Of a stretch of DNA of 36,483 bases, positions 9,069-34,909 are shown piece by piece. The number at the start of each line of letters is the position of its first letter. Position 1 is the stretch's first letter. Below the pieces are notes generated by a model. It worked only from the letters and a program-made list of their open reading frames with translations, ran no database searches and was not told the DNA's origin. The position numbers were made by a program, and so were the translations under genes. Location: the IMG/VR virus record IMGVR_UViG_3300028840_006758, one strand, 5' to 3'. The DNA comes from a virus.

Positions 9069-10343
9069 TTATGCCCAGCTTGTGATTTTTGTTTCTGGAA
9101 TCTTAACTAGTGGTTCATACCACCAAGCGAGATAACCAAGACAGTCAGAGATGTGTGTTAAGAGAGGATCTGTCTTTTGATCTAGCTTGTTATCTTTCCA
9201 GCTCACTTTTTCCAAGTCATTAATTAATTTCTTGCAACTGGGATCTATTATAATACGCCCGTCTTGCAATAGTCGATTCACGTTATTAACTCTATCGGAA
9301 ACGAATGGGTTATAGGTCTTTTCAACCCGCATTCCTGACCCTTGTAGAATAAGAAAATCCGATTGACCGGATGTTTTTCTATTTCTACCGGTTGAATCGG
9401 GAATTATTCGCCCTTGGAGATTGTTTCTTAGGATATAATCTCTCATTTTGTATGTGTCAGAGTTGCGAAGAAATGCTTCACTAAAGATATAGAGCTTATC
9501 GTCTCGTATTTGCCCAAAAACTGCCGTCATGGGATCAACGTTAAAGTCCATACCAATGAGAATCTCACCATTAAGGCGTTGCACTGGTGCGGTGTGGTCG
9601 TCTCTTCTAAATGAGTAGTAAGCAATTCCATCATCGGCATCACTAAACTCTCCTCGCAAGAATCGTGCTTGGTCTTTTTCCGACATAGATTTGAGGAGAT
9701 TTATATAGTCCTCGTCTATGTTCTCAAGGTTGTCAGTGGGGTTCATAAGCAAAGATTCGTAGTTTTCTGGATTAGCTAAAGGTTCATTGTCCTCTGGTTG
9801 AAGCTTTTTAATAAACATCCAGTACGACCAATGTGTTTTGACCGGAGGATTGCAATCATAATATGCTTTTTTTGCCAGAGTATTTTTTTCAGCTAACCGC
9901 GTCTTAGCAATACCCACAGAGCTACTATTTATTTGAGAAGATTCGTTGAAGTACATAGTGGAGTATTCGTTTCCGAGGATCTTTTCTACTCTTTCCTTAT
10001 CATCTAATCCACCTACCCAAATTTCAGAACCATTTGGAAGCTTAAGGAAATAGTCTGATTTGTTATAATTTTTCTCGGTTATTCCCAGATGAGGAAAGCA
10101 TGTTGTGACGACCTTTGGAAGTGTATCAAGCCATATAGAGCGCTTGGCATGGTTGAATTTGAACCTAAGAATGCAGTGACGGCTTTTTACCTTAGAGGCA
10201 CGTACTAATATGGCATAAACAAGAATAAAAGTTTTACCTGAACGAGACCCTCCAAAAAGCATAATATCTTTTGCTTTTGAGATGAGTAGCTTTACGGCCT
10301 CTTTTTGTTTGTCTGTTTTTTTAAAGACAACAGATACGCTCAT
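9069..10343 (-). CDS. terL: Terminase large subunit (424 aa)
   Basis: Walker A FGGSRSGKT near the N-terminus, a Walker-B-like YFNES, and a C-terminal nuclease-type IGMDFNVDP. 4-nt overlap with terS. Confidence 0.85.
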   Translation of the reverse strand: MSVSVVFKKTDKQKEAVKLLISKAKDIMLFGGSRSGKTFILVYAILVRASKVKSRHCILRFKFNHAKRSIWLDTLPKVVTTCFPHLGITEKNYNKSDYFLKLPNGSEIWVGGLDDKERVEKILGNEYSTMYFNESSQINSSSVGIAKTRLAEKNTLAKKAYYDCNPPVKTHWSYWMFIKKLQPEDNEPLANPENYESLLMNPTDNLENIDEDYINLLKSMSEKDQARFLRGEFSDADDGIAYYSFRRDDHTAPVQRLNGEILIGMDFNVDPMTAVFGQIRDDKLYIFSEAFLRNSDTYKMRDYILRNNLQGRIIPDSTGRNRKTSGQSDFLILQGSGMRVEKTYNPFVSDRVNNVNRLLQDGRIIIDPSCKKLINDLEKVSWKDNKLDQKTDPLLTHISDCLGYLAWWYEPLVKIPETKITSWA

Positions 10344-10693
10344 AGCTTTTCGTCATCAACATCAATTTTGATTTTAGGCATTTTAATGTTTTGATCGATA
10401 TCTGCTTTGTCTTTCCAGCCACAAAGATTTTTAAGACAGAAGATAAGCATCACATTATCGCCTTTTTCTGCTTTTTTTATGGCCGTTCTGATAAGCGAAA
10501 AGCGTGTGTGCACCATATTTTGCTCACGAAATTCCGCAAAGGTACAGTTATAATTGTTTTTGATGTGGCGCTCTATGGTGTCATGCGAAACGCCTAAAAA
10601 TGCTTCGCAGTCCGCCATGGTAGGTTTTAGACGCAGGATCGCCTTTAATTGACGGTCTTTTTCTTCGTCAATTAACTTTGGTTTAGTTTTCAA
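10340..10693 (-). CDS. terS: Terminase small subunit (HTH type, 117 aa)
   Basis: TTG start behind AGGAGGGG. HTH segment MADCEAFLGVSHDTIERHIK. C-terminal LIFCLKNLCGWKDK resembles the conserved small-terminase tail. Coupled to terL. Confidence 0.7.
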   Translation of the reverse strand: MKTKPKLIDEEKDRQLKAILRLKPTMADCEAFLGVSHDTIERHIKNNYNCTFAEFREQNMVHTRFSLIRTAIKKAEKGDNVMLIFCLKNLCGWKDKADIDQNIKMPKIKIDVDDEKL

Positions 10694-10715
10694 ATTGTCC
10701 CCTCCTAAGTAGTAC

Positions 10716-11228
10716 CTAGAGATTGCTATCGATCTCCCAAAAGTTAATGAGATCTATTTTCTCCTTAGAAACATCTTCTTGTTCAAAAATCTTCTTCGCC
10801 ATAAACCTTTTTTCGTCCAAAGATGTTTGCCTAGTGTACTGATTAAACAAAGCTTCGTCGTTAGAACGATGAACGTTAAAGAGCCAAGTATAGTAGTTTG
10901 TCCATCCATTGTAACATTTCTCGGCATCTTTAAGATGTATAGCGAAAACTTTGGGTGTGTTTAAGTGCTCGGGATACTTTTCGGGTGGGTAATGATTAGG
11001 AACGACCTCGATTTTTTCAATCATTGCGGACATTTTAAGGTCTTTGTAGTAGCGGTTATAAAATATAATGAACTTAAGATTACCGTGAACAAGAGCTTTT
11101 AAATAATAATTAGAAAATTTACGATACTCGACTTTCTTCTCTCCACTAAGAATCTGGTCAAAATAAATCTTCTTTAATCCAAGTTTAACTGTATTTCGCA
11201 CGTTCATATTCCAATCCTTTTTCTGCAT
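10716..11228 (-). CDS. ASCH (PUA-like) domain protein (170 aa)
   Basis: The N-terminal YFDQILSGEKKVEYRKF fits the ASCH G-x-K-x-x-E-x-R signature. The C-terminal half is unassigned. Confidence 0.5.
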   Translation of the reverse strand: MQKKDWNMNVRNTVKLGLKKIYFDQILSGEKKVEYRKFSNYYLKALVHGNLKFIIFYNRYYKDLKMSAMIEKIEVVPNHYPPEKYPEHLNTPKVFAIHLKDAEKCYNGWTNYYTWLFNVHRSNDEALFNQYTRQTSLDEKRFMAKKIFEQEDVSKEKIDLINFWEIDSNL

Positions 11229-11282
11229 TATACTCTATAACGCAACGGTATAAAAGGGATATGCACACGTAATATTAGCTAT

Positions 11283-12383
11283 TTAGATTGATTTTCCGAT
11301 ATATTTAAAGGTAAACGTTTTTACTTTAGACCTGGAACCCTTATTTAGTCTTCCGTATACAATCGCTTTTTTCATCTTTCTATCGACTGCAATAAGCTTC
11401 CATTTAGGGTTTTTAATTCTTGATAAATACATAGGCACCGATGAAAACTTTGCCATAATCTCATAGCCATATTTATCAATGAGATATTCGGCCGTTTTTT
11501 CCACGAGAAGATTACCTAAACCAAAGCCTATGTAGTCCGGATGTATTACAACCCGGTTTGAGTGCATTTTAAATGTTTTATCTGTTGGTCTTTTGGGGAC
11601 ATAATTTGTAAATGCCCCAAAGCCGACTTGCTCATCATCCTTAAACAAACCAAAAAAATGAGATTTCCCTCTCGATACTGACTCACTCAGATAATGATAC
11701 TTGCTAAAGTATTTCCATGTTGATTTATCGACTTCTTTAATTGTGAACTCGAGCTTTTCTGAGCGTTGCCAAACCGACCTCCGATGTTCGAGGTACTCTT
11801 GTTTATTACAATCAATGATCCAGTCGGGTTTTAGCCATTCGATTACGTCGTAATGGCATGCGATAAGTACAATGCACTTATCGGTCTTTCTTGCATATTT
11901 TTGAATGGAATGACTCATGACTTTTGCCACCGTCCGATCCACAACAGATGTCCACTCATCAATAACAGACACCTCATCGTTTTCAATCATAGCAAGAACG
12001 GCCTCTGCTCTTGCTTGTTGACCGTTTGAAAGTGTCCCAGCGGGTCTAATCCAGCATGGAACAGAAGTTAGGCCTATACCAGACAATGCCTTTGCACAGT
12101 CGTTATAGGGCATGTTTTCGGGCAATTGATTGATGACAGGTTTAGACTTATCTAATCTGCTTCTTAAACTCTCCTCACCCCAGATTTCTCTTGCAAGGGT
12201 TGTCTTTCCTGAGCCTGAGGCGCCAACAATAAGACCAATATTAAATGGTGTAGTGACATCTGCCTTTACTTCTAAGTGATGCTTAAGTTTTTTCTCAATA
12301 TCTATGTCTAGTGCATCGGCAGCTTTTTGTGTCCTAAAGTTGATGACTGGATCAGATTTGAGGTCTACGACATAAGTTTGCAT
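11283..12383 (-). CDS. ABC-type ATPase fused to a C-terminal GNAT-like acyltransferase domain (366 aa)
   Basis: Walker A GASGSGKTT, signature-like LSNGQQARA, Walker B VSVIDEWTSVVD, and H-loop-like IACH. The C-terminus VGFGAFTNY...NRVVIHPDYIGFGLGNLLVEKTAEYL fits the GNAT motif A pattern. Confidence 0.65.
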   Translation of the reverse strand: MQTYVVDLKSDPVINFRTQKAADALDIDIEKKLKHHLEVKADVTTPFNIGLIVGASGSGKTTLAREIWGEESLRSRLDKSKPVINQLPENMPYNDCAKALSGIGLTSVPCWIRPAGTLSNGQQARAEAVLAMIENDEVSVIDEWTSVVDRTVAKVMSHSIQKYARKTDKCIVLIACHYDVIEWLKPDWIIDCNKQEYLEHRRSVWQRSEKLEFTIKEVDKSTWKYFSKYHYLSESVSRGKSHFFGLFKDDEQVGFGAFTNYVPKRPTDKTFKMHSNRVVIHPDYIGFGLGNLLVEKTAEYLIDKYGYEIMAKFSSVPMYLSRIKNPKWKLIAVDRKMKKAIVYGRLNKGSRSKVKTFTFKYIGKSI

Positions 12384-12901
12384 TTAATTTCCCTTGTCTG
12401 GAACTCTTGAAATAGATCCTGTTGCTCCAGTTCGTCTGAACATTCAATAAGGATTAGGTATTGTTCTTCATCTAGGATATCTTTAACTGATGTTTCTTTC
12501 TCAGGATCTTCTACAACAAACTTTTTAATACCTAAGACCTCTGTATCAAAGTCTGGCATATCTCCTAGTTTGTTAATAACAGCATCCATGTCGAGATCTG
12601 ACCATCTTGCTATTTCATTATCTGCTGTCATATCAGCATACTCTTTTTCATCTGAGTCATAGTCATGATAGATAACAGGAACCTCTTTGAGCTTGAGCTT
12701 TTTTGCTGCTTCGTATCGTGCATGTCCTTTAACAATATATCCTGATCTATTAGATACGATTATGGGTGATCTCCAGCCATTGTACTTAATGATCTTTACC
12801 AAGCGTTTTATCTGATCATTTGAGTGCATATTGTTATTGTTTGGGTTTGGTTTGAGATCTTCTATGGGAATTAGCTTATCGTAGATACCGTGAAACTTCA
12901 T
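12365..12901 (-). CDS. ParB/Srx N-terminal-domain protein (178 aa, no partition-type HTH seen)
   Basis: LKPNPNNNNMHSNDQIKRLVKIIKYNGWRSPIIVSNRSGYIVKGHARYEAAKKLKLKEVPVIY matches the ParB N-domain pattern (..G.hR..A). Acidic C-terminal half. Confidence 0.75.
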   Translation of the reverse strand: MKFHGIYDKLIPIEDLKPNPNNNNMHSNDQIKRLVKIIKYNGWRSPIIVSNRSGYIVKGHARYEAAKKLKLKEVPVIYHDYDSDEKEYADMTADNEIARWSDLDMDAVINKLGDMPDFDTEVLGIKKFVVEDPEKETSVKDILDEEQYLILIECSDELEQQDLFQEFQTREIKCKLMS

Positions 12902-12982
12902 TTATGCCCCTCTATTAATGGTATTCGACGATTTAACAAAATGTGTTCTAAAATGGCAAAAATATGTTCTTGGAGGAACACC

Positions 12983-13807
12983 ATGAAAACCTTATTTCTC
13001 ATTCTCTCATTTCTTTTCGTAAGCTCTTGCTCAGCTAATGGAGAATGGTCCGGTCATACTATGCAAAGAGAGAAGAAGGTTTGTGTGGTGGGAGATACAG
13101 GAATGGGGACAAAAGAACAGGATAAGGTAGCAGATGCCATGCACAATCATGGGTGTACGGATATCTTAATTGCTGGAGATGTTATTTATCCCAGTGGACT
13201 AATCTCCATGAATGACAAAGACTTTAAGCTGAAGTTTTTGGATCCTTATAAAACTCTCTTTAAGAAAGCGACCTTTTATCCTGCTCTAGGCAATCATGAC
13301 TATTACGGCAAGCAAGAGGTGTGGTTAACCATAGGGGAGAGTTATCCTCAAATTCATTTTCCCCACTATTGGTACAAGTTTGTCATTGGCGACACGTGCT
13401 TTTTTGCGATTGACACCAATTGGTACAAGATCAAGATGTATAAATGGCTCAGATCTGAGCTTAAAAAAAACAAGGGTTGTCGAAAAAAGATTGTCTTCGG
13501 ACATCACCCCTATAAGTCCTCAGGGTCTCATGGTGATGCTAATCCTGCACGCAAGCTTCTAATGCGCTACGGGTTTATGGGAAAAGCTGATCTCTATATA
13601 GCAGGGCATGATCACCAGTTAAGTGATGAGGGGATAGTCAGAGGGACACGTCAGCTTATTTCTGGTGCAGGGGCAAAGCTTCGTCCACTTAAGAAGAATC
13701 CTGAGTGGGGAGTATCTGAATTAGGTTTTGTTTCCTTAGATCTTAAAGAAATGACTTATACGTTTATTAACTACAAGGGTGAGGTGCTTTACTCGGGCGG
13801 GTTTTAG
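12983..13807 (+). CDS. Lipoprotein calcineurin-like metallophosphoesterase (274 aa)
   Basis: ATG at 12983 is 6 nt after GGAGG. Signal peptide with lipobox MKTLFLILSFLFVSSC. Motifs GDTG, AGDVIYPSG, GNHDY, GHHP and GHDH. It is the only plus-strand gene inside the minus-strand block. Confidence 0.8.
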   Translation: MKTLFLILSFLFVSSCSANGEWSGHTMQREKKVCVVGDTGMGTKEQDKVADAMHNHGCTDILIAGDVIYPSGLISMNDKDFKLKFLDPYKTLFKKATFYPALGNHDYYGKQEVWLTIGESYPQIHFPHYWYKFVIGDTCFFAIDTNWYKIKMYKWLRSELKKNKGCRKKIVFGHHPYKSSGSHGDANPARKLLMRYGFMGKADLYIAGHDHQLSDEGIVRGTRQLISGAGAKLRPLKKNPEWGVSELGFVSLDLKEMTYTFINYKGEVLYSGGF

Positions 13808-13816
13808 TTCAATATT

Positions 13817-14095
13817 TCACCCGAACCACTCCCTTATGTTTTCCTCTTGCTCTACCTTATTCCATATCGCCTGAGCACGGTCATTATCGTTTAGATAGTC
13901 TTCATAAGTAAGACCCAGGTCAATAGCTCTATTACAATAGCGCTCAAACTTTTTAAGCTCAGCAAGACCCAAGGGATCTTGCCGGTCCATAATAACCTGA
14001 TAGACCCGTTCATCTAATCGATTGAAACAATACTCAGCAACAATGTTCTTAGCGTTTTCTGCCACATATTTTCGTATAGCTTCATCATCTGTCAT
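13817..14095 (-). CDS. Hypothetical early protein (92 aa)
   Basis: ORF coupled by a 4-nt overlap to the upstream gene. No motif recognised. Confidence 0.55.
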   Translation of the reverse strand: MTDDEAIRKYVAENAKNIVAEYCFNRLDERVYQVIMDRQDPLGLAELKKFERYCNRAIDLGLTYEDYLNDNDRAQAIWNKVEQEENIREWFG

Positions 14096-14721
14096 TGAAA
14101 TACCCTACATTCAGAAAGATGGACCTTAAAATCTTTAACCTGACACCAGGCAAACATCCTACGCCTTCTTTCAATAATTGTTTCCACTAAAGGGGCAGTA
14201 GGAAGCTCTAGGCAATCTTTCCATTCATAAAACTTGATCAATTGACCGTCGTCGCAAATAAGAAAGTCGGAATCTGATGTCCCAACTCCGTATCTGTACT
14301 CTTCTGGCATCAACGAGGTCATATTGAGAGAGTAAAGATAGGTCTTATACGGGGAGAGTTTAGTTCTGTAGACAAATCCATGTGGCAAAAAGTCAGTCAG
14401 ATCAAAATGATCCTTAAACTCTATTGCCCCCTTTGTCTCTTCATCAAACTCCCTCAAGGCGCAGACAGTGGGAAGCTCATTCTTATGCATTTTTCCCGTA
14501 ACAAGACTAGGAAAAGCAAAGTCTGGTAAAGGAAGTTGACCCAACATAATTGGAGATAGCTCGGATATATTGTGTCGTGAGTTATGGACACTTATATCCT
14601 CTTCGATAGTGGTCATTTTTTCGCATCTAAGCATCACGTAAGTATTGCAGTCCTCTCCATAGTAAAAGGGAAGAAGAGCAATGTTATCCATCGCTATCAA
14701 GCTTTCTCTCGACATCAGCAA
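14092..14721 (-). CDS. Divergent Nudix-like hydrolase (about 200 aa; start uncertain: TTG 14721, ATG 14715 or ATG 14691)
   Basis: GKMHKNELPTVCALREFDEETKG fits G-x5-E-x7-R-E-U-x-E-E with the final Gly displaced by one residue. Confidence 0.45.
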   Translation of the reverse strand: MLMSRESLIAMDNIALLPFYYGEDCNTYVMLRCEKMTTIEEDISVHNSRHNISELSPIMLGQLPLPDFAFPSLVTGKMHKNELPTVCALREFDEETKGAIEFKDHFDLTDFLPHGFVYRTKLSPYKTYLYSLNMTSLMPEEYRYGVGTSDSDFLICDDGQLIKFYEWKDCLELPTAPLVETIIERRRRMFAWCQVKDFKVHLSECRVFQ

Positions 14722-20166: not shown

Positions 20167-20385
20167 TTGTTTAAGAATAAACTAAACAAGGGACAAGCTG
20201 TGAAAAATAAAGAGATTGTAAATCATTTTGAGAAACGCATTATTGAAATTAAAAAACACCTCTATCTCAGAGATGAGTATTTTAAAAAAAGGGGAATGGA
20301 CACAAAGGAGACAAGAGGAGAGTTGGCGCTCATTACTAAAACTCTCCAACTTAACGTCAAACTTTATGAAAAGTTCAAGGCGTGA
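20167..20385 (+). CDS. Hypothetical protein (72 aa; TTG start as listed, in-frame GTG at 20200 after AAGGGA is an alternative)
   Basis: ORF preceding rusA with a GTGA overlap. Confidence 0.45.
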   Translation: MFKNKLNKGQAVKNKEIVNHFEKRIIEIKKHLYLRDEYFKKRGMDTKETRGELALITKTLQLNVKLYEKFKA

Positions 20386-20903
20386 TCATGATAGTGCGCA
20401 TGAAGTTTGATTGCGAACCTATTTCTACTAATCATATGAACGGAAGAAATCACAAAACAGGACGAACCTTTAAAGCGAGTAAATCCGTTCAGTTTAAACG
20501 TGATATTCACGACCAATTAAGACAAAAATACTGGGAACCGGTAAGAGCACTTGTTGAAGGTGGGTACGGGTCTGATTTTGTGGGTCTAAAGAATATGCAA
20601 GTGCCGTACGGTTTAGTGGTTGAGTATACCTGGCATTTTCCACACTCTAAAATCCTTAAGAAAGCAAAGAACAAGAAATCCCATAGGCATATCAGAAAGA
20701 GAAACTGTGACGTGAACAACTACGATAAGTGGACCACAGACTGTCTATTTGAATTTTTAGATATTGATGACTCTTATATTATTGATATGCATTTAAAGAA
20801 AAGACCAACGGAACTTGAAGAGACTTGGTTTGAAGTAGTGATTAAAGTTGAGCTTTTAGAGCAAGATGAGCATTACCGAGATTTTATCCAACCCTTAGAA
20901 TAA
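20382..20903 (+). CDS. rusA: RusA-family Holliday junction resolvase (about 167-173 aa)
   Basis: CDVNNYDKWTTDCLFEFLDIDDSYIIDMHLKK fits the RusA D-x-(D/N)-N...K...D...DD pattern. Possible starts are GTG 20382, ATG 20388 and ATG 20400. Confidence 0.65.
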   Translation: MIMIVRMKFDCEPISTNHMNGRNHKTGRTFKASKSVQFKRDIHDQLRQKYWEPVRALVEGGYGSDFVGLKNMQVPYGLVVEYTWHFPHSKILKKAKNKKSHRHIRKRNCDVNNYDKWTTDCLFEFLDIDDSYIIDMHLKKRPTELEETWFEVVIKVELLEQDEHYRDFIQPLE

Positions 20904-26026: not shown

Positions 26027-28075
26027 TCAGAGATTATAAAGATCCGTTGCCAGTATCCGTGTCTCTCTGTTTTGCTTTTGGATTTCTATTATTTTGACAT
26101 CATTTGATGTGCTTCCACCAGGGATGTCATTCGTCTCAAGGATAAATTCGTCCCCAATTTCAGAATCAAAGTTAATTCCCTTGGTTGTCAGGGTATGGAG
26201 GATGGATCTTTCGGATTTAATATTGATATGGTCTGTTATTTTAGAGACAAAACTCTCCAGTACATGCCGAAACCTTACGGTGTTATCTATTCCGTGAAGG
26301 TATCGTGATTTGTTTGATGAGGCGGTTTGTGAGGACACCCCCACAAACTCTGAAGAATTGTAATGAGGATTGAAAGCAACAAGTTGAGTCGCAATATCCT
26401 TATAATCCACACCATAAGAGTGAGTATTTTCAACAATCTCGGTATTAGATATCGTTTCAGTGGGTGTAAAGCTTGCAAACAGCTCATAAACAAATTCAAA
26501 AGAGTCGTTTTGATAGATGTAACCCAGCGTTGACGAAAGAATCCGTTCTATCGACTTAAAGTAACTATTAAAGTCTAGCTCATCAAAAGTTGGAATAGAA
26601 AAAGCGGCATTTACCGCCAAACTTGACTTGGCAGTGGTAAAGCTTGCTGCATTAGCACTTAGGCCCGTAGCTTCAATGATCTCTTTAAGCACATCCGCTT
26701 GATTCTGGTTTGATTCCTCTGGCTTAATCTTAAAAAAGACCCCAAAAGTTGCTGGATCTAGGGTAGGCATGGACAGAGTCGCTTCAAAGTTATTGGTAAA
26801 GGTCACTTCAATAAGCTTATGCCCTGTGGCAGTAAGGTTTGTCTCTGTGGCGGTGTAGTCTCTGCCGTATAGCGGGTAGTAATAGTTATTCTGCAGGTCT
26901 CTTATGACTAAAGATGGGCATACATTGGAATTGATTGTATCAGTCGCCACAATTGATGCGTTTTTTGTAACGTAGACATAATGATTTGTTCGATCCACGT
27001 ATAGTACTCGGGAATAGTAAGTCCCAGAGCCAGTGATGACAAAAGTATCCCCAATATGAATCTTTGGTGAGACAACCGAAGTGGTATCCAAACGAGTGAA
27101 GTTAGCGTCAGTATTATCCACACTAGTAGGTGAGAAAGAAAAATCAGTGGTTCCATAAGTCCCCACTCTTCCACAAGCAAACTCTCTATTATTAGAAGTC
27201 GTTAAGTTTGTGGTGTAGTTTGTACACACCGCCTCATCCATTAGCTCAGGATTAAGTGCTTGAGCGTCAGGGAGGTTGGTGACTGTCTCTGGAATTGTAT
27301 CGTACCTTGTCACAGAACCAAAATAATAGCGAATAGGTTGATTTTGATAGTTGGACTGAATATTGGTGAAGTTGTCATTGGTATAATAAATAACGTCATC
27401 ACCCATAGTTGCCAGAGTTGAAAGGACATCGATGTCATCCTTAATGGAAAAGATCACCGATGTTCTTCTAACACTTAGAGCTGAGATTCTTCCCCTAAAG
27501 GTCACCTTAAAGTTTTCAATCTCATCAAGAAAATGCCACACCTCAATAGATGAATTATAAAAGGAATCTTCTGGTGTGAGATATTGGTTAAACTCTCCGT
27601 TGTCATTGGTAATAGTCATATTACTTGATGAAATCGACAAGATTCCGGCAAAGATGTTCTTCACTGACTGAGTGACTTGGGGTGAGCTTTGTATTCTCGG
27701 TAACCATTCTCTTAAATCCACCGTAGGACTTGTTGGATCCTTACCAACGACCCGGAACCGTTCAATCGTATAATAGAGGTTATAGGTTGCGACAATAGCA
27801 TTTGAGCTAGAAGGAGCAGCATTTAAGTTCACCGTGAGTAGATTGGTGGTTTCGTTAAAACTAAACTCTCCCGACGAAGGTGTGCCTGAGACTTTAGTAA
27901 GCTCCGTTCCTTGTTCAAATACTGATTCCAGGTCGTATGGAAAGGTCATGGTGTAGGTAGTTCCGGACACTATGGCGAGTGCTGCATTTACATAGCGCCT
28001 TGGAACCACCTTCACCAAGATGAATTTTTGTGTTGTCTGGTCTGTCTTTTTGGTTGAATAATTATTTGCCATCAA
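26027..28075 (-). CDS. Tail tip / baseplate hub protein (682 aa), by position
   Basis: Large ORF between the distal tail genes and the fibre. ATGA overlap with the upstream gene. No motif recognised. Confidence 0.6.
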   Translation of the reverse strand: MMANNYSTKKTDQTTQKFILVKVVPRRYVNAALAIVSGTTYTMTFPYDLESVFEQGTELTKVSGTPSSGEFSFNETTNLLTVNLNAAPSSSNAIVATYNLYYTIERFRVVGKDPTSPTVDLREWLPRIQSSPQVTQSVKNIFAGILSISSSNMTITNDNGEFNQYLTPEDSFYNSSIEVWHFLDEIENFKVTFRGRISALSVRRTSVIFSIKDDIDVLSTLATMGDDVIYYTNDNFTNIQSNYQNQPIRYYFGSVTRYDTIPETVTNLPDAQALNPELMDEAVCTNYTTNLTTSNNREFACGRVGTYGTTDFSFSPTSVDNTDANFTRLDTTSVVSPKIHIGDTFVITGSGTYYSRVLYVDRTNHYVYVTKNASIVATDTINSNVCPSLVIRDLQNNYYYPLYGRDYTATETNLTATGHKLIEVTFTNNFEATLSMPTLDPATFGVFFKIKPEESNQNQADVLKEIIEATGLSANAASFTTAKSSLAVNAAFSIPTFDELDFNSYFKSIERILSSTLGYIYQNDSFEFVYELFASFTPTETISNTEIVENTHSYGVDYKDIATQLVAFNPHYNSSEFVGVSSQTASSNKSRYLHGIDNTVRFRHVLESFVSKITDHINIKSERSILHTLTTKGINFDSEIGDEFILETNDIPGGSTSNDVKIIEIQKQNRETRILATDLYNL

Positions 28076-33376: not shown

Positions 33377-34909
33377 TTATAGTTCGTTAACGAACAACTC
33401 TTCTTCACCATTTGGTGTGTAAGTTGAAAGAGTCATTTGAAGTTCTAGAACTCCGTCTGTATCGACAACTTCGTACGAAGTAATGGTTGTAAATGGGGCA
33501 TAAATGTTTTTTACAGTCCCCGCGGTCCAGTTGCCTCCAGACTTTTCACCATTGTTGTACATAAATTGGACATTGGCGTTTGTTCTAAACTTGAAGAACT
33601 TATCAGCATCGTACTGAGTAAGTCGAGCTGTCACATCAAAAGTCGTTGCTCTTGCTGTAATAAGTGTTCCCTCTCGTCCTGAAGTGGCACAAAGAGAAAG
33701 AAGGTTTGACACAGTGTTGGTACCGTTCATTGTGACGTTTGAAGCGTTGAAACAAACATAGTCGTCAAAGTCTCCAAAAGTCACTTCGTTTGCTTTCCCA
33801 ACGTTTGGATCAGTTGAGTCATAAGAAGGTGTTTGAGGAGCAGTGATGTCGATCACATTGTCTGCTTCATATGAAGTAGCACCTGTGTCATCAGCAGCAA
33901 TATCAAATCCGAGTTTGTCACCAATTGTGTTTGCTGTGTTTGTTCCCGTATTCCAAAGAAGACTTAAAAGAGCAGAAGTACTTGAAGCAATTGTGTACTT
34001 ACCCGTTGAACTTGAGTAAGTAACCTCATAACTCTCCGCTGAATCGACTGACTCCATCGCAGTAGCGAGGGCATTCGCTAAATCTACAGGATCTTTATAC
34101 ATTTGAGCTGTCACTTGAGCAGCAAATGTTCCATTGTCTGATGTAAAATCCAAGTAAATGTCACTTGAAGTGATCTCAATTGGGTTGAAGTAGTATTCAA
34201 TTCCAGCTAAGGCATATTCACAGTTAATAAGCTGTCCGGCATCAGCTGTCATAGTCATCGTAGAAACACGAGAACCAGACATCATTTCAACGGCACCGCC
34301 ATTTGATCGGTAAACCCACGTAGTAAAAGTCGGATGACCTTCTGTCGTTGGGTAGAAGAGTACAGCTTGTCCTAAATTTACCCCAGAAGCTGGTGCTGCA
34401 GGTAAATTGAAGTTAAGTGAAAGAGTATCGGTTGAAATTGACTGAGTATTTCTTACTCTAAAGCCATTCACACCATCTTTAATGAGAAGACCGTGACCTA
34501 AGTCTCTAAATTGTGCTCCCTCACCAGCGTCTACTACAATAGTTGCTCTTGTTGAAGCATCCCCTGCAGTTGATCCACCTACTGTATCGTATTCAGTCCC
34601 ATTAACGGTCTTCCCGCCAAGAAAACTCTCAATAAATAATCCGTGGTTACTTTCAGTCCCGGCCGTACCAGAGGCGACCCAGTAATGCGAAATTGTTGAT
34701 GTGGGAGACTCAAGACCAAGAATAGATTTTGCTTGGGCGAGTGAGTTAATAAGTCGATCGTTTGTTAATTCTTCAAATGCAGGAGTGATTGAGAATCCAT
34801 CCTGAAGTGCAATATAGTCATCAGTGGCACTTGTAGGAGAAACTGGTGTTCCTTCCGTTACTTCCTCTACAATTGCGCACACCGACGAACGGTTGTTCAA
34901 TGCTGTCAT
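33377..34909 (-). CDS. Major tail (tube) protein, unusually large (510 aa)
   Basis: Directly upstream of G/G-T and followed by a strong attenuator, which implies high expression. SD contains a G9 run. No separate sheath/tube pair is present. Confidence 0.6.
   Translation of the reverse strand: MTALNNRSSVCAIVEEVTEGTPVSPTSATDDYIALQDGFSITPAFEELTNDRLINSLAQAKSILGLESPTSTISHYWVASGTAGTESNHGLFIESFLGGKTVNGTEYDTVGGSTAGDASTRATIVVDAGEGAQFRDLGHGLLIKDGVNGFRVRNTQSISTDTLSLNFNLPAAPASGVNLGQAVLFYPTTEGHPTFTTWVYRSNGGAVEMMSGSRVSTMTMTADAGQLINCEYALAGIEYYFNPIEITSSDIYLDFTSDNGTFAAQVTAQMYKDPVDLANALATAMESVDSAESYEVTYSSSTGKYTIASSTSALLSLLWNTGTNTANTIGDKLGFDIAADDTGATSYEADNVIDITAPQTPSYDSTDPNVGKANEVTFGDFDDYVCFNASNVTMNGTNTVSNLLSLCATSGREGTLITARATTFDVTARLTQYDADKFFKFRTNANVQFMYNNGEKSGGNWTAGTVKNIYAPFTTITSYEVVDTDGVLELQMTLSTYTPNGEEELFVNEL

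Follow-up and report, generated by a model that had tools for sequence, protein, structure and literature searches.

A ParB-domain protein and an ABC-ATPase::GNAT fusion beside the terminase genes of a virus: a conserved gene pair and candidate DNA-modification module

Directly upstream of its terminase genes, the IMG/VR virus record IMGVR_UViG_3300028840_006758 encodes a ParB N-domain protein and a fusion of an ABC-type ATPase with a GNAT acyltransferase, which form a conserved, functionally linked core pair. On balance, we favor the reading that the pair modifies phage DNA, as a module of two components that is expressed late and belongs to the "ParB-terminase locus" type. This architecture is widespread and not new, having been predicted before by others. 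The window (the whole stretch of DNA analyzed, 36,483 nucleotides) carries the ParB N-domain gene, the ABC-ATPase::GNAT gene and an ASCH-like gene on the minus strand, all directly upstream of terS/terL:

12365..12901, minus strand: ParB/Srx N-domain protein (178 aa, acidic, pI 4.9; Pfam ParB_N)
12365..12383, minus strand: overlap of the ParB stop and the fusion start (19 nt)
11283..12383, minus strand: ABC::GNAT fusion, whole gene (366 aa; phrog_11143)
11772..12383, minus strand: ABC-type ATPase half, aa 1-204 of the fusion (Pfam ABC_tran, PDB sequence matches, Foldseek)
11286..11771, minus strand: GNAT acyltransferase half, aa 205-366 of the fusion (Acetyltransf_1/_10; basic, pI 9.9)
10716..11228, minus strand: accessory protein with an ASCH-like N-domain and a DUF7249-like C-domain (170 aa)
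10340..10693, minus strand: small terminase subunit terS, the start of the packaging genes (phrog_309, E 1.5e-5; phrog_606)
9069..10343, minus strand: large terminase subunit terL (Terminase_3, E 5.5e-14; Terminase_6N, Terminase_6C; phrog_979, phrog_2)

The first-pass annotation of this DNA had described three consecutive minus-strand genes upstream of terS, and the corresponding open reading frames are all present. The 19-nt overlap that it reported between the first two is exact and suggests translational coupling, and every peptide that it quoted (IVKGHARYEAAKKLKLKEVPV, GASGSGKTT, LSNGQQ, VIDEW, ACH, HPDYIGFGLGNLL and SGEKKVEYR) is found in the translations. The terminase genes lie downstream, within 600 nt, and the small subunit falls into one cluster with the ORFs ahead of TerL at 24 loci.

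The fusion matches phrog_11143 with E 2e-82 (residues 16-364 on profile positions 13-351 of 357). Its N-terminal half scores 32.9 bits against ABC_tran (cutoff 25) and contains Walker A (G54-T62), the Q-loop (Q86), the signature (L118-Q122), Walker B (D142-E143), the D-loop (S146/D149) and the H-loop (H177). The PDB sequence matches of this half are ABC nucleotide-binding domains, as are all top Foldseek matches of its AlphaFold2 model (pLDDT 87.9). Conservation was assessed over 70 members of the fusion family sharing 27-63% identity. Residues G54, S56, G57, G59 and K60 of Walker A are invariant in all 70, and so are L118/S119/G121, D142-E143, S146, D149 and H177; Q86 of the Q-loop is not (33/70). 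An evident DNA-binding insertion, for instance a coiled coil, is missing from the ABC head.

The C-terminal half is recognized by Acetyltransf_1 (29.6-31.5 bits, cutoff 20.7) and Acetyltransf_10 (28.3 bits), GNAT models of Pfam are matched by 60 of the 70 family members, and the predicted structure of the domain (pLDDT 87.6) retrieves 448 GNAT matches in the PDB by Foldseek at E<=1e-3. Pfam together with AlphaFold2/Foldseek thus bear out the earlier description of a full ABC motif set joined to a GNAT-like C-terminus, and settle the question it had raised of whether the C-terminal domain is a GNAT. The acyl-CoA pyrophosphate loop reads Y284-x-G286-x-G288-x-G290, with all three glycines conserved and G286 invariant in 70/70 members. 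Residues W223, H230, Y231, R277, P282 and D283 are specific to the family and equally invariant (70/70). The conserved loop and these residues argue for catalysis, and, judged from sequence conservation, both enzymatic halves of the fusion are intact and under strong selection.

By structure, the GNAT half resembles generic acetyl-CoA GNATs: its top Foldseek neighbors (Naa60, SpeG, PaiA, RimI) are protein N-terminal acetyltransferases and polyamine acetyltransferases. TmcA (2zpa) appears at rank 42 (E 1e-5, TM ~0.59), equal to unrelated GNATs, and NAT10 gives a weak profile match (E 0.079) over 25 residues only. A specific kinship with TmcA/NAT10 was rejected, since dozens of generic GNATs rank equally, and an enzyme of the TmcA/NAT10 type was likewise rejected, since the ATPase is ABC-type and not helicase-type (RecD-like). 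Mom is absent from the top 50 neighbors. Membership of the Mom family (PF25680) was also rejected, with 15.0-17.0 bits against a cutoff of 27.1 and an hhalign probability of 1.2%; weak Pfam Mom matches occur in 9 of the 70 family members. In the domain model the topology is that of a plain GNAT: strands alone follow the last helix, from residue 126 on, and no helical insertion like the HTH of Mom is seen there. The invariant H230-Y231 align with Mom H58-Y59 in a statistically non-significant hhalign, and a correspondence of W223 with the functionally important Mom W48 is suggested by spacing only.

The ParB protein scores 35.6 bits against ParB_N (cutoff 26.3, E 9.6e-9). It has a G-x-x-R box, in which G59-H60-A61-R62 is the counterpart of the canonical GERR box, and a short conserved C-terminal segment (LILIECSDELEQ...). 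Its family profile finds the CTP-binding domain of Spo0J/Noc/M. xanthus ParB in the PDB (E ~1e-13). No partition-type HTH was detected: Pfam gives only ParB_N (aa 10-85 of 178), and in the clearest profile matches from the PDB, Spo0J and M. xanthus ParB, the alignment is confined to the N-domain and ends at about residue 95. These alignments agree with the previous assignment of a ParB/Srx N-domain without such an HTH. A ParB for chromosome or plasmid partition was rejected, as the central parS-recognizing HTH is absent by both Pfam and the PDB alignments. The best PHROG is phrog_498 (E 2e-30), which represents the ParB N-part of ParB-DNA methyltransferase fusions; this type of ParB is therefore also found fused to a DNA-modifying enzyme. 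Because the protein has no HTH, its contact with DNA is something that we infer, and we predict that it activates its partner, the fusion enzyme, or targets it to DNA.

The fusion family comprises at least 4,966 clustered proteins (E<=1e-10) and occurs in 73 phage records, both sequenced phages and prophages, from many bacterial phyla. Its cultured carriers include Pasteurella phage Pmp13, Leptospira phages LE3 and LE4, Lactococcus phage P335 and Rhodococcus phage Jace. The closest relative of the fusion in the window shares 63% identity with it, and the best BFVD match is a protein of Leptospira phage LE4 (TM 0.86). The family is annotated by JGI as "ABC-type ATPase with predicted acetyltransferase domain"; members are still labelled "ABC transporter", "siderophore transporter" or "hypothetical".

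In 62 of 72 viral loci and 58 of 75 genome loci, the gene directly upstream of the fusion, on its strand, encodes a ParB homolog; in 14 of the latter 75 no ParB was found. Among 72 related loci, 32 have the two genes overlapping (by 16, 19 or 22 nt), and an overlap is also found in phages Pmp13, LE4, 315.4 and P335. The arrangement recurs in two independent collections and so is not due to chance. Moreover, Lactococcus P335 and Streptococcus 315.4 encode the ABC and GNAT parts in two neighboring genes, which indicates that the two act together as a complex. The module stands directly before terS/terL in the window and in most related viral loci. Terminase is the main match among the 57 first large ORFs downstream of the fusion (Terminase_6N in 35, Terminase_3 in 21, TerL_ATPase in 9 and GpA_ATPase in 3, counts that may overlap), and adjacency to terminase is only partial in the genome loci (at least 25/56).

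The third gene is an occasional, optional accessory. Gene callers start its ORF at Met8 (11207), which is likely the true start and gives a protein of 163 aa. It consists of an ASCH-like N-domain (aa ~10-103) and a DUF7249-like C-domain (aa 104-164). The ASCH signature G-x-K-x-x-E-x-R is present as G-E-K-K-V-E-Y-R at aa 29-36, and the K, E and R of G-x-K-x-x-E-Y-R are invariant in 51 homologs of the N-domain, 35 of which match ASCH at E<=0.01 and 8 the related DUF3850. The assignment of the 170-aa product to ASCH is supported by the signature and by these family-level matches, but its own score remains below the Pfam ASCH cutoff (17.7-18.5 bits against 21.2). In 5 of 80 viral loci the fusion is followed downstream by a BLAST relative of this protein, mostly as the very next gene; among the protein of the window and 131 intervening ORFs, Pfam ASCH is found in 3 of the 132 sequences. 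In Pmp13, a phrog_625 gene occupies the same place.

Consequently, the unit proposed in the first-pass annotation shrinks from a trio to the core of ParB and fusion: the co-occurrence expected for the three families is found for these two (62/72 and 58/75) but not for ASCH (5/80). Its role of eraser for the ASCH protein goes no further than superfamily membership. The alignment of the ASCH family with E. coli YqfB has an hhalign probability of 9.5% over 22 columns and covers the shared N-terminal ASCH motif only, and a search of the PDB with the family profile returned no chain at E<=1.

An aspartate decarboxylase (PanD) and a family-III CoA-transferase are inserted next to the fusion in 5 of 80 loci, for example in the cultured phage Jace (gp85-gp88). 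Dedicated acyl-CoA donor genes are typical of hypermodification pathways. The PanD and CoA-transferase loci suggest such a dedicated donor, possibly beta-alanyl-CoA. The phage of the window has no donor-synthesis genes, and its acyl donor is for this reason probably a host acyl-CoA such as acetyl-CoA.

A system of this kind had already been predicted. According to the accounts given in PMC7824862 (section 3.4.7) and PMC4738411, Aravind's group proposed that an ABC-ATPase-coupled GNAT acylates a DNA base (Iyer, Zhang, Burroughs and Aravind, NAR 2013). The published example of an ABC-coupled GNAT, Tenacibaculum phage pT24 (PMC7824862), is among the fusion homologs found here. The group also described phage ParB-terminase loci (ParB-Tls), for which a DNA-modifying role in packaging is predicted (PMC4738411; PMC8256090). 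The window shares with the predicted acyl-modification system the fusion architecture, the ParB neighbor and the position before the terminase; nothing essential differs, and it adds a new sequence plus an ASCH-DUF7249 gene that is rare among the members. The earlier statement that the architecture is uncharacterized is correct as regards experiment, but the architecture has been described, functionally predicted (PMC7824862, PMC4738411) and named by JGI. The literature yielded no experimental work on the fusion family, nor any report of a modified base from a carrier phage.

A close parallel for the ParB protein is provided by the 5mYOX176/ParB176 system, in which experiments show that a thymine dioxygenase requires a small phage ParB to act post-replicatively on dsDNA (PMC13229309). 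The ParBs of this group have 194 aa, a nucleotide-binding and a C-terminal domain, and no DNA-binding domain (PMC13229309). Compared by description, the ParB of the window is alike in architecture, size (178 against 194 aa) and adjacency to an enzyme, and it shares with ParB176 its nearest PDB relatives, M. xanthus ParB 7bnk, 7bnr and 7o0n. ParB176 is also encoded near terminase genes, next to the modifying enzyme whose cognate activator it is (PMC13229309). The partners differ, being an Fe/2-oxoglutarate dioxygenase in the 5mYOX system and an ABC::GNAT protein in the window.

For the GNAT domain, the experimental precedent is Mom of phage Mu, a GNAT-fold enzyme that modifies adenine N6 in dsDNA (PMC13219725, PDB 8BV8). 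As a late-expressed phage GNAT that acts on dsDNA and evades restriction, Mom resembles the proposed module, and mutation of its H58-Y59 drastically cuts activity (PMC13219725). However, Mom is a single-domain protein with an essential HTH-like insertion (~175-209), uses Gly-tRNA rather than acyl-CoA as donor (PMC13219725) and needs neither an ATPase nor a ParB, whereas the GNAT of the window has no such insertion and retains a canonical acyl-CoA loop. TmcA/NAT10 follow a shared logic, combining an NTPase module with a GNAT that uses acetyl-CoA to acylate the exocyclic amine of a nucleobase, but they differ from the ABC system of the window in their helicase-type ATPase, RNA substrate and lack of a ParB partner. 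Finally, in the Dnd system a ParB-superfamily protein (DndB) and an ABC ATPase (DndD) cooperate in DNA modification (PMC10853773); its chemistry, sulfur in the backbone, and its place in cellular defense, not linked to phage packaging, set it apart from the present module.

We propose the following scheme. It builds on what the analysis shows, namely the identities of the domains, the conservation of their motifs, the linkage of the genes and their place in the genome; the DNA target, the acyl-CoA donor, the parts played by ATP and ParB and a purpose in anti-restriction are predicted. ATP binding would bring a pair of ABC heads together in the usual sandwich dimer. This dimer would engage dsDNA or open and position a base, and the basic GNAT domain would then move an acyl group from acyl-CoA to an exocyclic amine of a DNA base. 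ParB, made in fixed proportion to the fusion through the overlapping frames, would serve as its cognate activator or DNA-loading partner. Newly replicated phage DNA would be marked just before or during packaging, and the acyl mark would shield the phage genome from host nucleases. Several observations count against this scheme: a GNAT structure as close to protein and small-molecule acetyltransferases as to nucleic-acid ones, sub-threshold similarity to Mom, an ABC head without an evident DNA-binding insertion, a ParB without an HTH, and genome loci in which no ParB was found or in which terminase adjacency is partial. Where present, the ASCH-DUF7249 protein might bind to the acyl-marked base, or serve to clear away acylated nucleotides or RNA. 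A bolder version, which we put forward tentatively and would not yet bet on, is that the pair represents the first ATP- and acyl-CoA-dependent DNA N-acyltransferase. It would lay down an undescribed base mark at packaging (acetyl here, beta-alanyl in the PanD/CoA-transferase variants), with a ParB lacking a DNA-binding domain as obligatory activator and ASCH as reader or proof-reading deacylase.

The genes had previously been read as a module for an acyl mark on cytosine. The functional linkage stands and acylation of nucleic acid is the most plausible chemistry, but nothing indicates cytosine, and the GNAT resembles TmcA or Mom no more than it resembles generic GNATs. Among the possible targets, phage DNA is the better supported, in agreement with the independent published prediction (PMC7824862, PMC4738411, PMC8256090).

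It is unlikely, though worth considering, that the fusion is instead a protein or small-molecule acyltransferase for host takeover or counter-defense, with ParB as a nucleotide-binding regulator; its target might be RNA polymerase (as for phiKMV Rac), a packaging protein, an immune effector or a signalling nucleotide. This would fit the top structural neighbors Naa60, SpeG, PaiA and RimI and the known phage GNATs that modify host proteins (PMC7824862), and PanD with the CoA-transferase could equally feed a small-molecule pathway. However, it leaves unexplained the near-obligate, translationally coupled ParB, kin to ParB-methyltransferase fusions, as well as the position before the terminase and the need for an ABC ATPase. 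Moreover, Foldseek rank among GNATs tells little about substrate: those of Mom are not predictable from its structural neighbors, according to its authors (PMC13219725).

We regard it as quite improbable that the system is an ATP-driven analog of TmcA/NAT10 acting on cytidine in host or phage tRNA or rRNA, with ASCH reading or removing the mark. The combination of ATPase and GNAT does resemble the logic of TmcA, which is among the Foldseek matches (rank 42), as NAT10 is among the weak profile matches (E 0.079); in addition, RNA binding was the original prediction for ASCH domains, and E. coli YqfB carries the annotation of N4-acetylcytidine amidohydrolase. Nevertheless, the ATPase is of ABC type, unlike that of TmcA, the TmcA/NAT10 matches are no better than those to dozens of unrelated GNATs, and ASCH occurs in only a small minority of the loci. 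Furthermore, the constant partner has a ParB fold whose characterized relatives act with DNA, and the constant neighborhood is a DNA-packaging operon.

That ParB loads ABC-type SMC complexes is established biology, and it favors a packaging accessory without chemistry, in which ParB would be a nuclease or pac-site factor, the ABC protein an SMC/Rad50-like end or condensation factor, and the GNAT regulatory. The pair is indeed directly upstream of terS/terL in most loci, and a ParB fold may have nuclease activity (the profile matches include PDB 5k5a, "ParB domain protein nuclease"), but this reading is very doubtful given the acyl-CoA loop and putative active-site residues conserved family-wide, the PanD/CoA-transferase genes of 5 loci, which make sense only with group transfer, an ABC head without coiled coils, and a phage that already encodes its own terS.

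The copy in the window brings no new principle beyond the optional ASCH-DUF7249 gene. If the preferred reading of the pair as a DNA-modification module is true, the family would represent a second, mechanistically different GNAT route to DNA modification, using acyl-CoA and ATP where Mom uses aminoacyl-tRNA, and would add a new chemical mark to the anti-restriction repertoire of phages. It would also widen the part played by ParB-like proteins, which were recently shown to activate enzymes that modify DNA bases. The PanD/CoA-transferase variants and several carrier phages in culture open the question to direct testing.

Three open reading frames on the minus strand of the window lie directly upstream of the terminase genes, as the first-pass annotation had placed them, and all the motifs quoted there are found in the translations. 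The ParB gene and the gene of the ABC-ATPase::GNAT fusion overlap by 19 nt.

Genes of the module and its surroundings in the window
12365..12901, minus strand: ParB gene, 178 aa; Pfam ParB_N 35.6 bits against a cutoff of 26.3
11283..12383, minus strand: ABC::GNAT fusion gene, 366 aa; ABC_tran 32.9 against 25, Acetyltransf_1 29.6 against 20.7
10716..11228, minus strand: ASCH-like protein gene, 170 aa; Pfam ASCH 17.7 bits, under the threshold of 21.2; DUF7249 at aa 104-132
directly downstream of the three genes: terS, phrog_309
downstream, with terS: terL, Terminase_3, E 5.5e-14

A megablast search against 50,697 phage records returned no close DNA relative of this region. The numbers of promoter-like (8) and terminator-like (4) signals in 10300-14200 are within the range of shuffled sequences, and operon boundaries therefore cannot be claimed.

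The fusion matches phrog_11143 (function unknown) over its full length (E 2e-82) and has at least 4,966 homologues at E<=1e-10, some of which are named “ABC-type ATPase with predicted acetyltransferase domain” by JGI. Its AlphaFold2 model (pLDDT 87.9, pTM 0.78) resembles ABC nucleotide-binding domains. Foldseek hits of the whole chain were dominated by ABC transporters and uninformative on the GNAT, which was therefore modelled separately; the model of residues 203-366 (pLDDT 87.6) matched 448 PDB GNATs at E<=1e-3, and the assignment of the C-terminal half to this fold thus held up. Among 70 non-identical family members (27-63% identity), the invariant residues of the ABC half include G54, S56, G57, G59 and K60 of Walker A, L118/S119/G121 of the signature, D142-E143, S146/D149 of the D-loop and H177, and those of the GNAT half W223, H230, Y231, R277, P282, D283 and G286. 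G288 is kept in 69/70 members, at position 290, 60 members have G, 8 have A and 2 have S, and the Q-loop residue Q86 is not conserved (33/70). The invariance across these members indicates that selection preserves both predicted activities, ATPase and GNAT. With a pI of 9.4 (9.9 for its GNAT half) the fusion is basic, and ParB, at pI 4.9, is acidic.

The fusion was detected by tblastn in 73 phage records from very diverse hosts, and the order ParB, fusion, (ASCH), terS, terL, portal is found in Pasteurella Pmp13, Leptospira LE4, Streptococcus 315.4 and Lactococcus P335. In the last two, whose hosts are Gram-positive, two neighbouring genes encode the ABC half and the GNAT half separately (L003:4001-5070 in the Streptococcus phage record, L004:4001-5055 in that of the Lactococcus phage). 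Their ABC half is listed under the names “ABC transporter” or “iron siderophore transporter”, very likely in error. The ParB partner carries the label “DNA modification methylase” in Javan prophages. A fusion copy with 34% identity was also identified on a contig of a Candidatus Woesearchaeota MAG, binned as a DPANN archaeon (L118, match at 1938-2972), and further copies are present in Patescibacteria and Saccharibacteria MAGs. Unless these contigs are mis-binned, the module extends to viruses of very small-celled hosts.

Co-occurrence of the three gene families, as initially proposed, stood for ParB and the fusion. Among 80 IMG/VR viral loci, 72 of which include upstream sequence, an ORF of the same BLAST cluster as the window's ParB is present in 63/72, adjacent and on the same strand in 62, and the two genes overlap by 16, 19 or 22 nt in 32/72. 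Pfam ParB_N is passed by 43 of 64 upstream-ORF sequences (the window's ParB and 63 from related loci). ParB also adjoins the fusion in 58/75 loci from species-representative genomes (80 loci in total), where TerL lies within 4 kb in at least 25/56. The first large downstream ORF in the viral loci (n=57) mostly matches terminase families (Terminase_6N 35, Terminase_3 21, TerL_ATPase 9, GpA_ATPase 3; these counts may overlap). The third family did not follow this pattern: relatives of the window's ASCH protein come after the fusion in only 5/80 viral loci, and Pfam ASCH matches 3/132 sequences (the window's protein and 131 intervening ORFs). The ASCH gene is outside the core module, and the three genes do not form a unit.

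The best PHROG of the window's ParB is phrog_498 (E 2e-30), corresponding to the ParB N-part of ParB-DNA methyltransferase fusions, and a profile of its family finds Spo0J, Noc and M. xanthus ParB through their CTP-binding domain (E ~1e-13). It harbors a G-H-A-R box where G-E-R-R is usual, no HTH was detected in it, and its conserved C-terminal segment overlaps the start of the fusion gene.

An exhaustive search identified 56 relatives of the ASCH-like protein, which is made of two modules, an N-domain of ~90 aa with stand-alone homologues of 87-110 aa, and a DUF7249-like C-terminal module (aa 104-164); the two domains, fused in the window, each occur alone as well. The K, E and R of G-x-K-x-x-E-Y-R are invariant in the N-domain family. 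Since 35 of its 51 members match Pfam ASCH (8 match DUF3850), the predicted ASCH identity is supported at the family level. A role as an eraser, put forward from the ASCH protein E. coli YqfB, found no such support: by hhalign the likeness to YqfB is confined to a 22-column motif (probability 9.5%), with no significant similarity beyond it, and a profile search gave no PDB match to the N-domain family. Pasteurella phage Pmp13 has a phrog_625 (ASCH-like) gene in the equivalent position, though on the opposite strand (L001:5085-5366, minus strand).

The closest structural neighbours of the GNAT half in Foldseek are generic acetyl-CoA GNATs; TmcA ranks only 42nd behind them, and a TmcA-like membership was rejected. 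Membership of the Mom family was considered owing to a faint Pfam match, 15-17 bits for the window's fusion, under threshold, with 9/70 family members at E<=0.01. An invariant K-x-H-Y-L motif (H230-Y231; codons of K228-H230 at window 11689-11697) also aligns with K57-H58-Y59 of phage Mu Mom (L085:1378-2100), in an alignment that is not statistically significant. The H58A and Y59A substitutions drastically reduce Mom activity (PMC13219725), and the motif match may be taken as a lead only. Membership was rejected on the basis of the hhalign probability with Mu Mom (1.2%), the sub-cutoff Pfam score and the absence of Mom (8BV8) from the top 50 Foldseek neighbours. The GNAT of the fusion has retained the canonical acyl-CoA loop, and the insertion of Mom is missing from it. 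The fusion works like Mom or TmcA only in a broad sense and is a member of neither family.

An aspartate decarboxylase (PanD, E ~1e-30) and a short family-III CoA-transferase adjoin the fusion in 5/80 viral loci, one of the five being the cultured Rhodococcus/Gordonia phage Jace, where gp85 is ParB, gp86 the fusion, gp87 the aspartate decarboxylase and gp88 the CoA-transferase homologue.

PanD and CoA-transferase genes next to the fusion, by comparison locus
L046: 1796-2823
L048: 1975-2987
L052: 3917-4892
L060: 6098-7206
L070: 1916-2967
L086 (phage Jace): 4598-5709, PanD and CoA-transferase homologue

Aspartate decarboxylase yields beta-alanine, which makes beta-alanyl-CoA a plausible donor in these variants and suggests that the two genes are a dedicated supply of it for the GNAT. 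In the literature searched, no article connects these genes. Neither gene is present in the window by tblastn, so host acyl-CoA is the likely donor in this phage.

Divergent from the ParB gene lies a calcineurin-like metallophosphoesterase (window 12983-13807, plus strand; 274 aa according to the gene callers). Its N-terminus, MKTLFLILSFLFVSSC, resembles a lipobox-containing lipoprotein signal peptide, and it may therefore be a moron-type secreted enzyme; a longer ORF that begins with GTG at 12890 and overlaps the ParB start is probably an artefact of ORF calling. At 14092-14721, two genes upstream of the module and like it on the minus strand, there is a weak NUDIX hydrolase match (21.3 bits, cutoff 21.1) with no recurrence in related loci. 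One of the window's 39 other ORFs matches phrog_151 (“transposase”, E 5.5e-9); at E<=1e-5 no further DNA-modifying enzyme came to light. When ten large unassigned ORFs were scanned with Pfam, the only matches were a RusA resolvase (20382-20900) and a weak depolymerase match; many large ORFs have no Pfam match (e.g. 26030-28075 and 33380-34909).

The system was reportedly first described by Iyer et al. in 2013 (NAR). PMC7824862 cites that article; Tenacibaculum phage pT24, which it names, is among the fusion homologues. The initial reading, that the genes form a module for acyl modification of nucleic acids, is reasonable and agrees with a published prediction; cytosine as its target is unsupported, the GNAT being no nearer to TmcA than to generic GNATs. 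The literature search found no experiments on the ABC::GNAT family. PMC8256090 repeats a suggestion that ParB proteins guide modification machinery while DNA is being packaged, and phage ParBs with a nucleotide-binding and a C-terminal domain, devoid of a DNA-binding domain, were shown experimentally to be cognate activators of a thymine dioxygenase on dsDNA (PMC13229309). PMC13219725 shows Gly-tRNA-dependent modification of adenine in dsDNA by the GNAT Mom. We consider, with moderate confidence, that the most likely mechanism is a ParB-assisted acylation of phage DNA at the packaging stage, in which the fusion would use ATP and acyl-CoA. The module of this virus belongs to a kind that is already known, with a predicted function.
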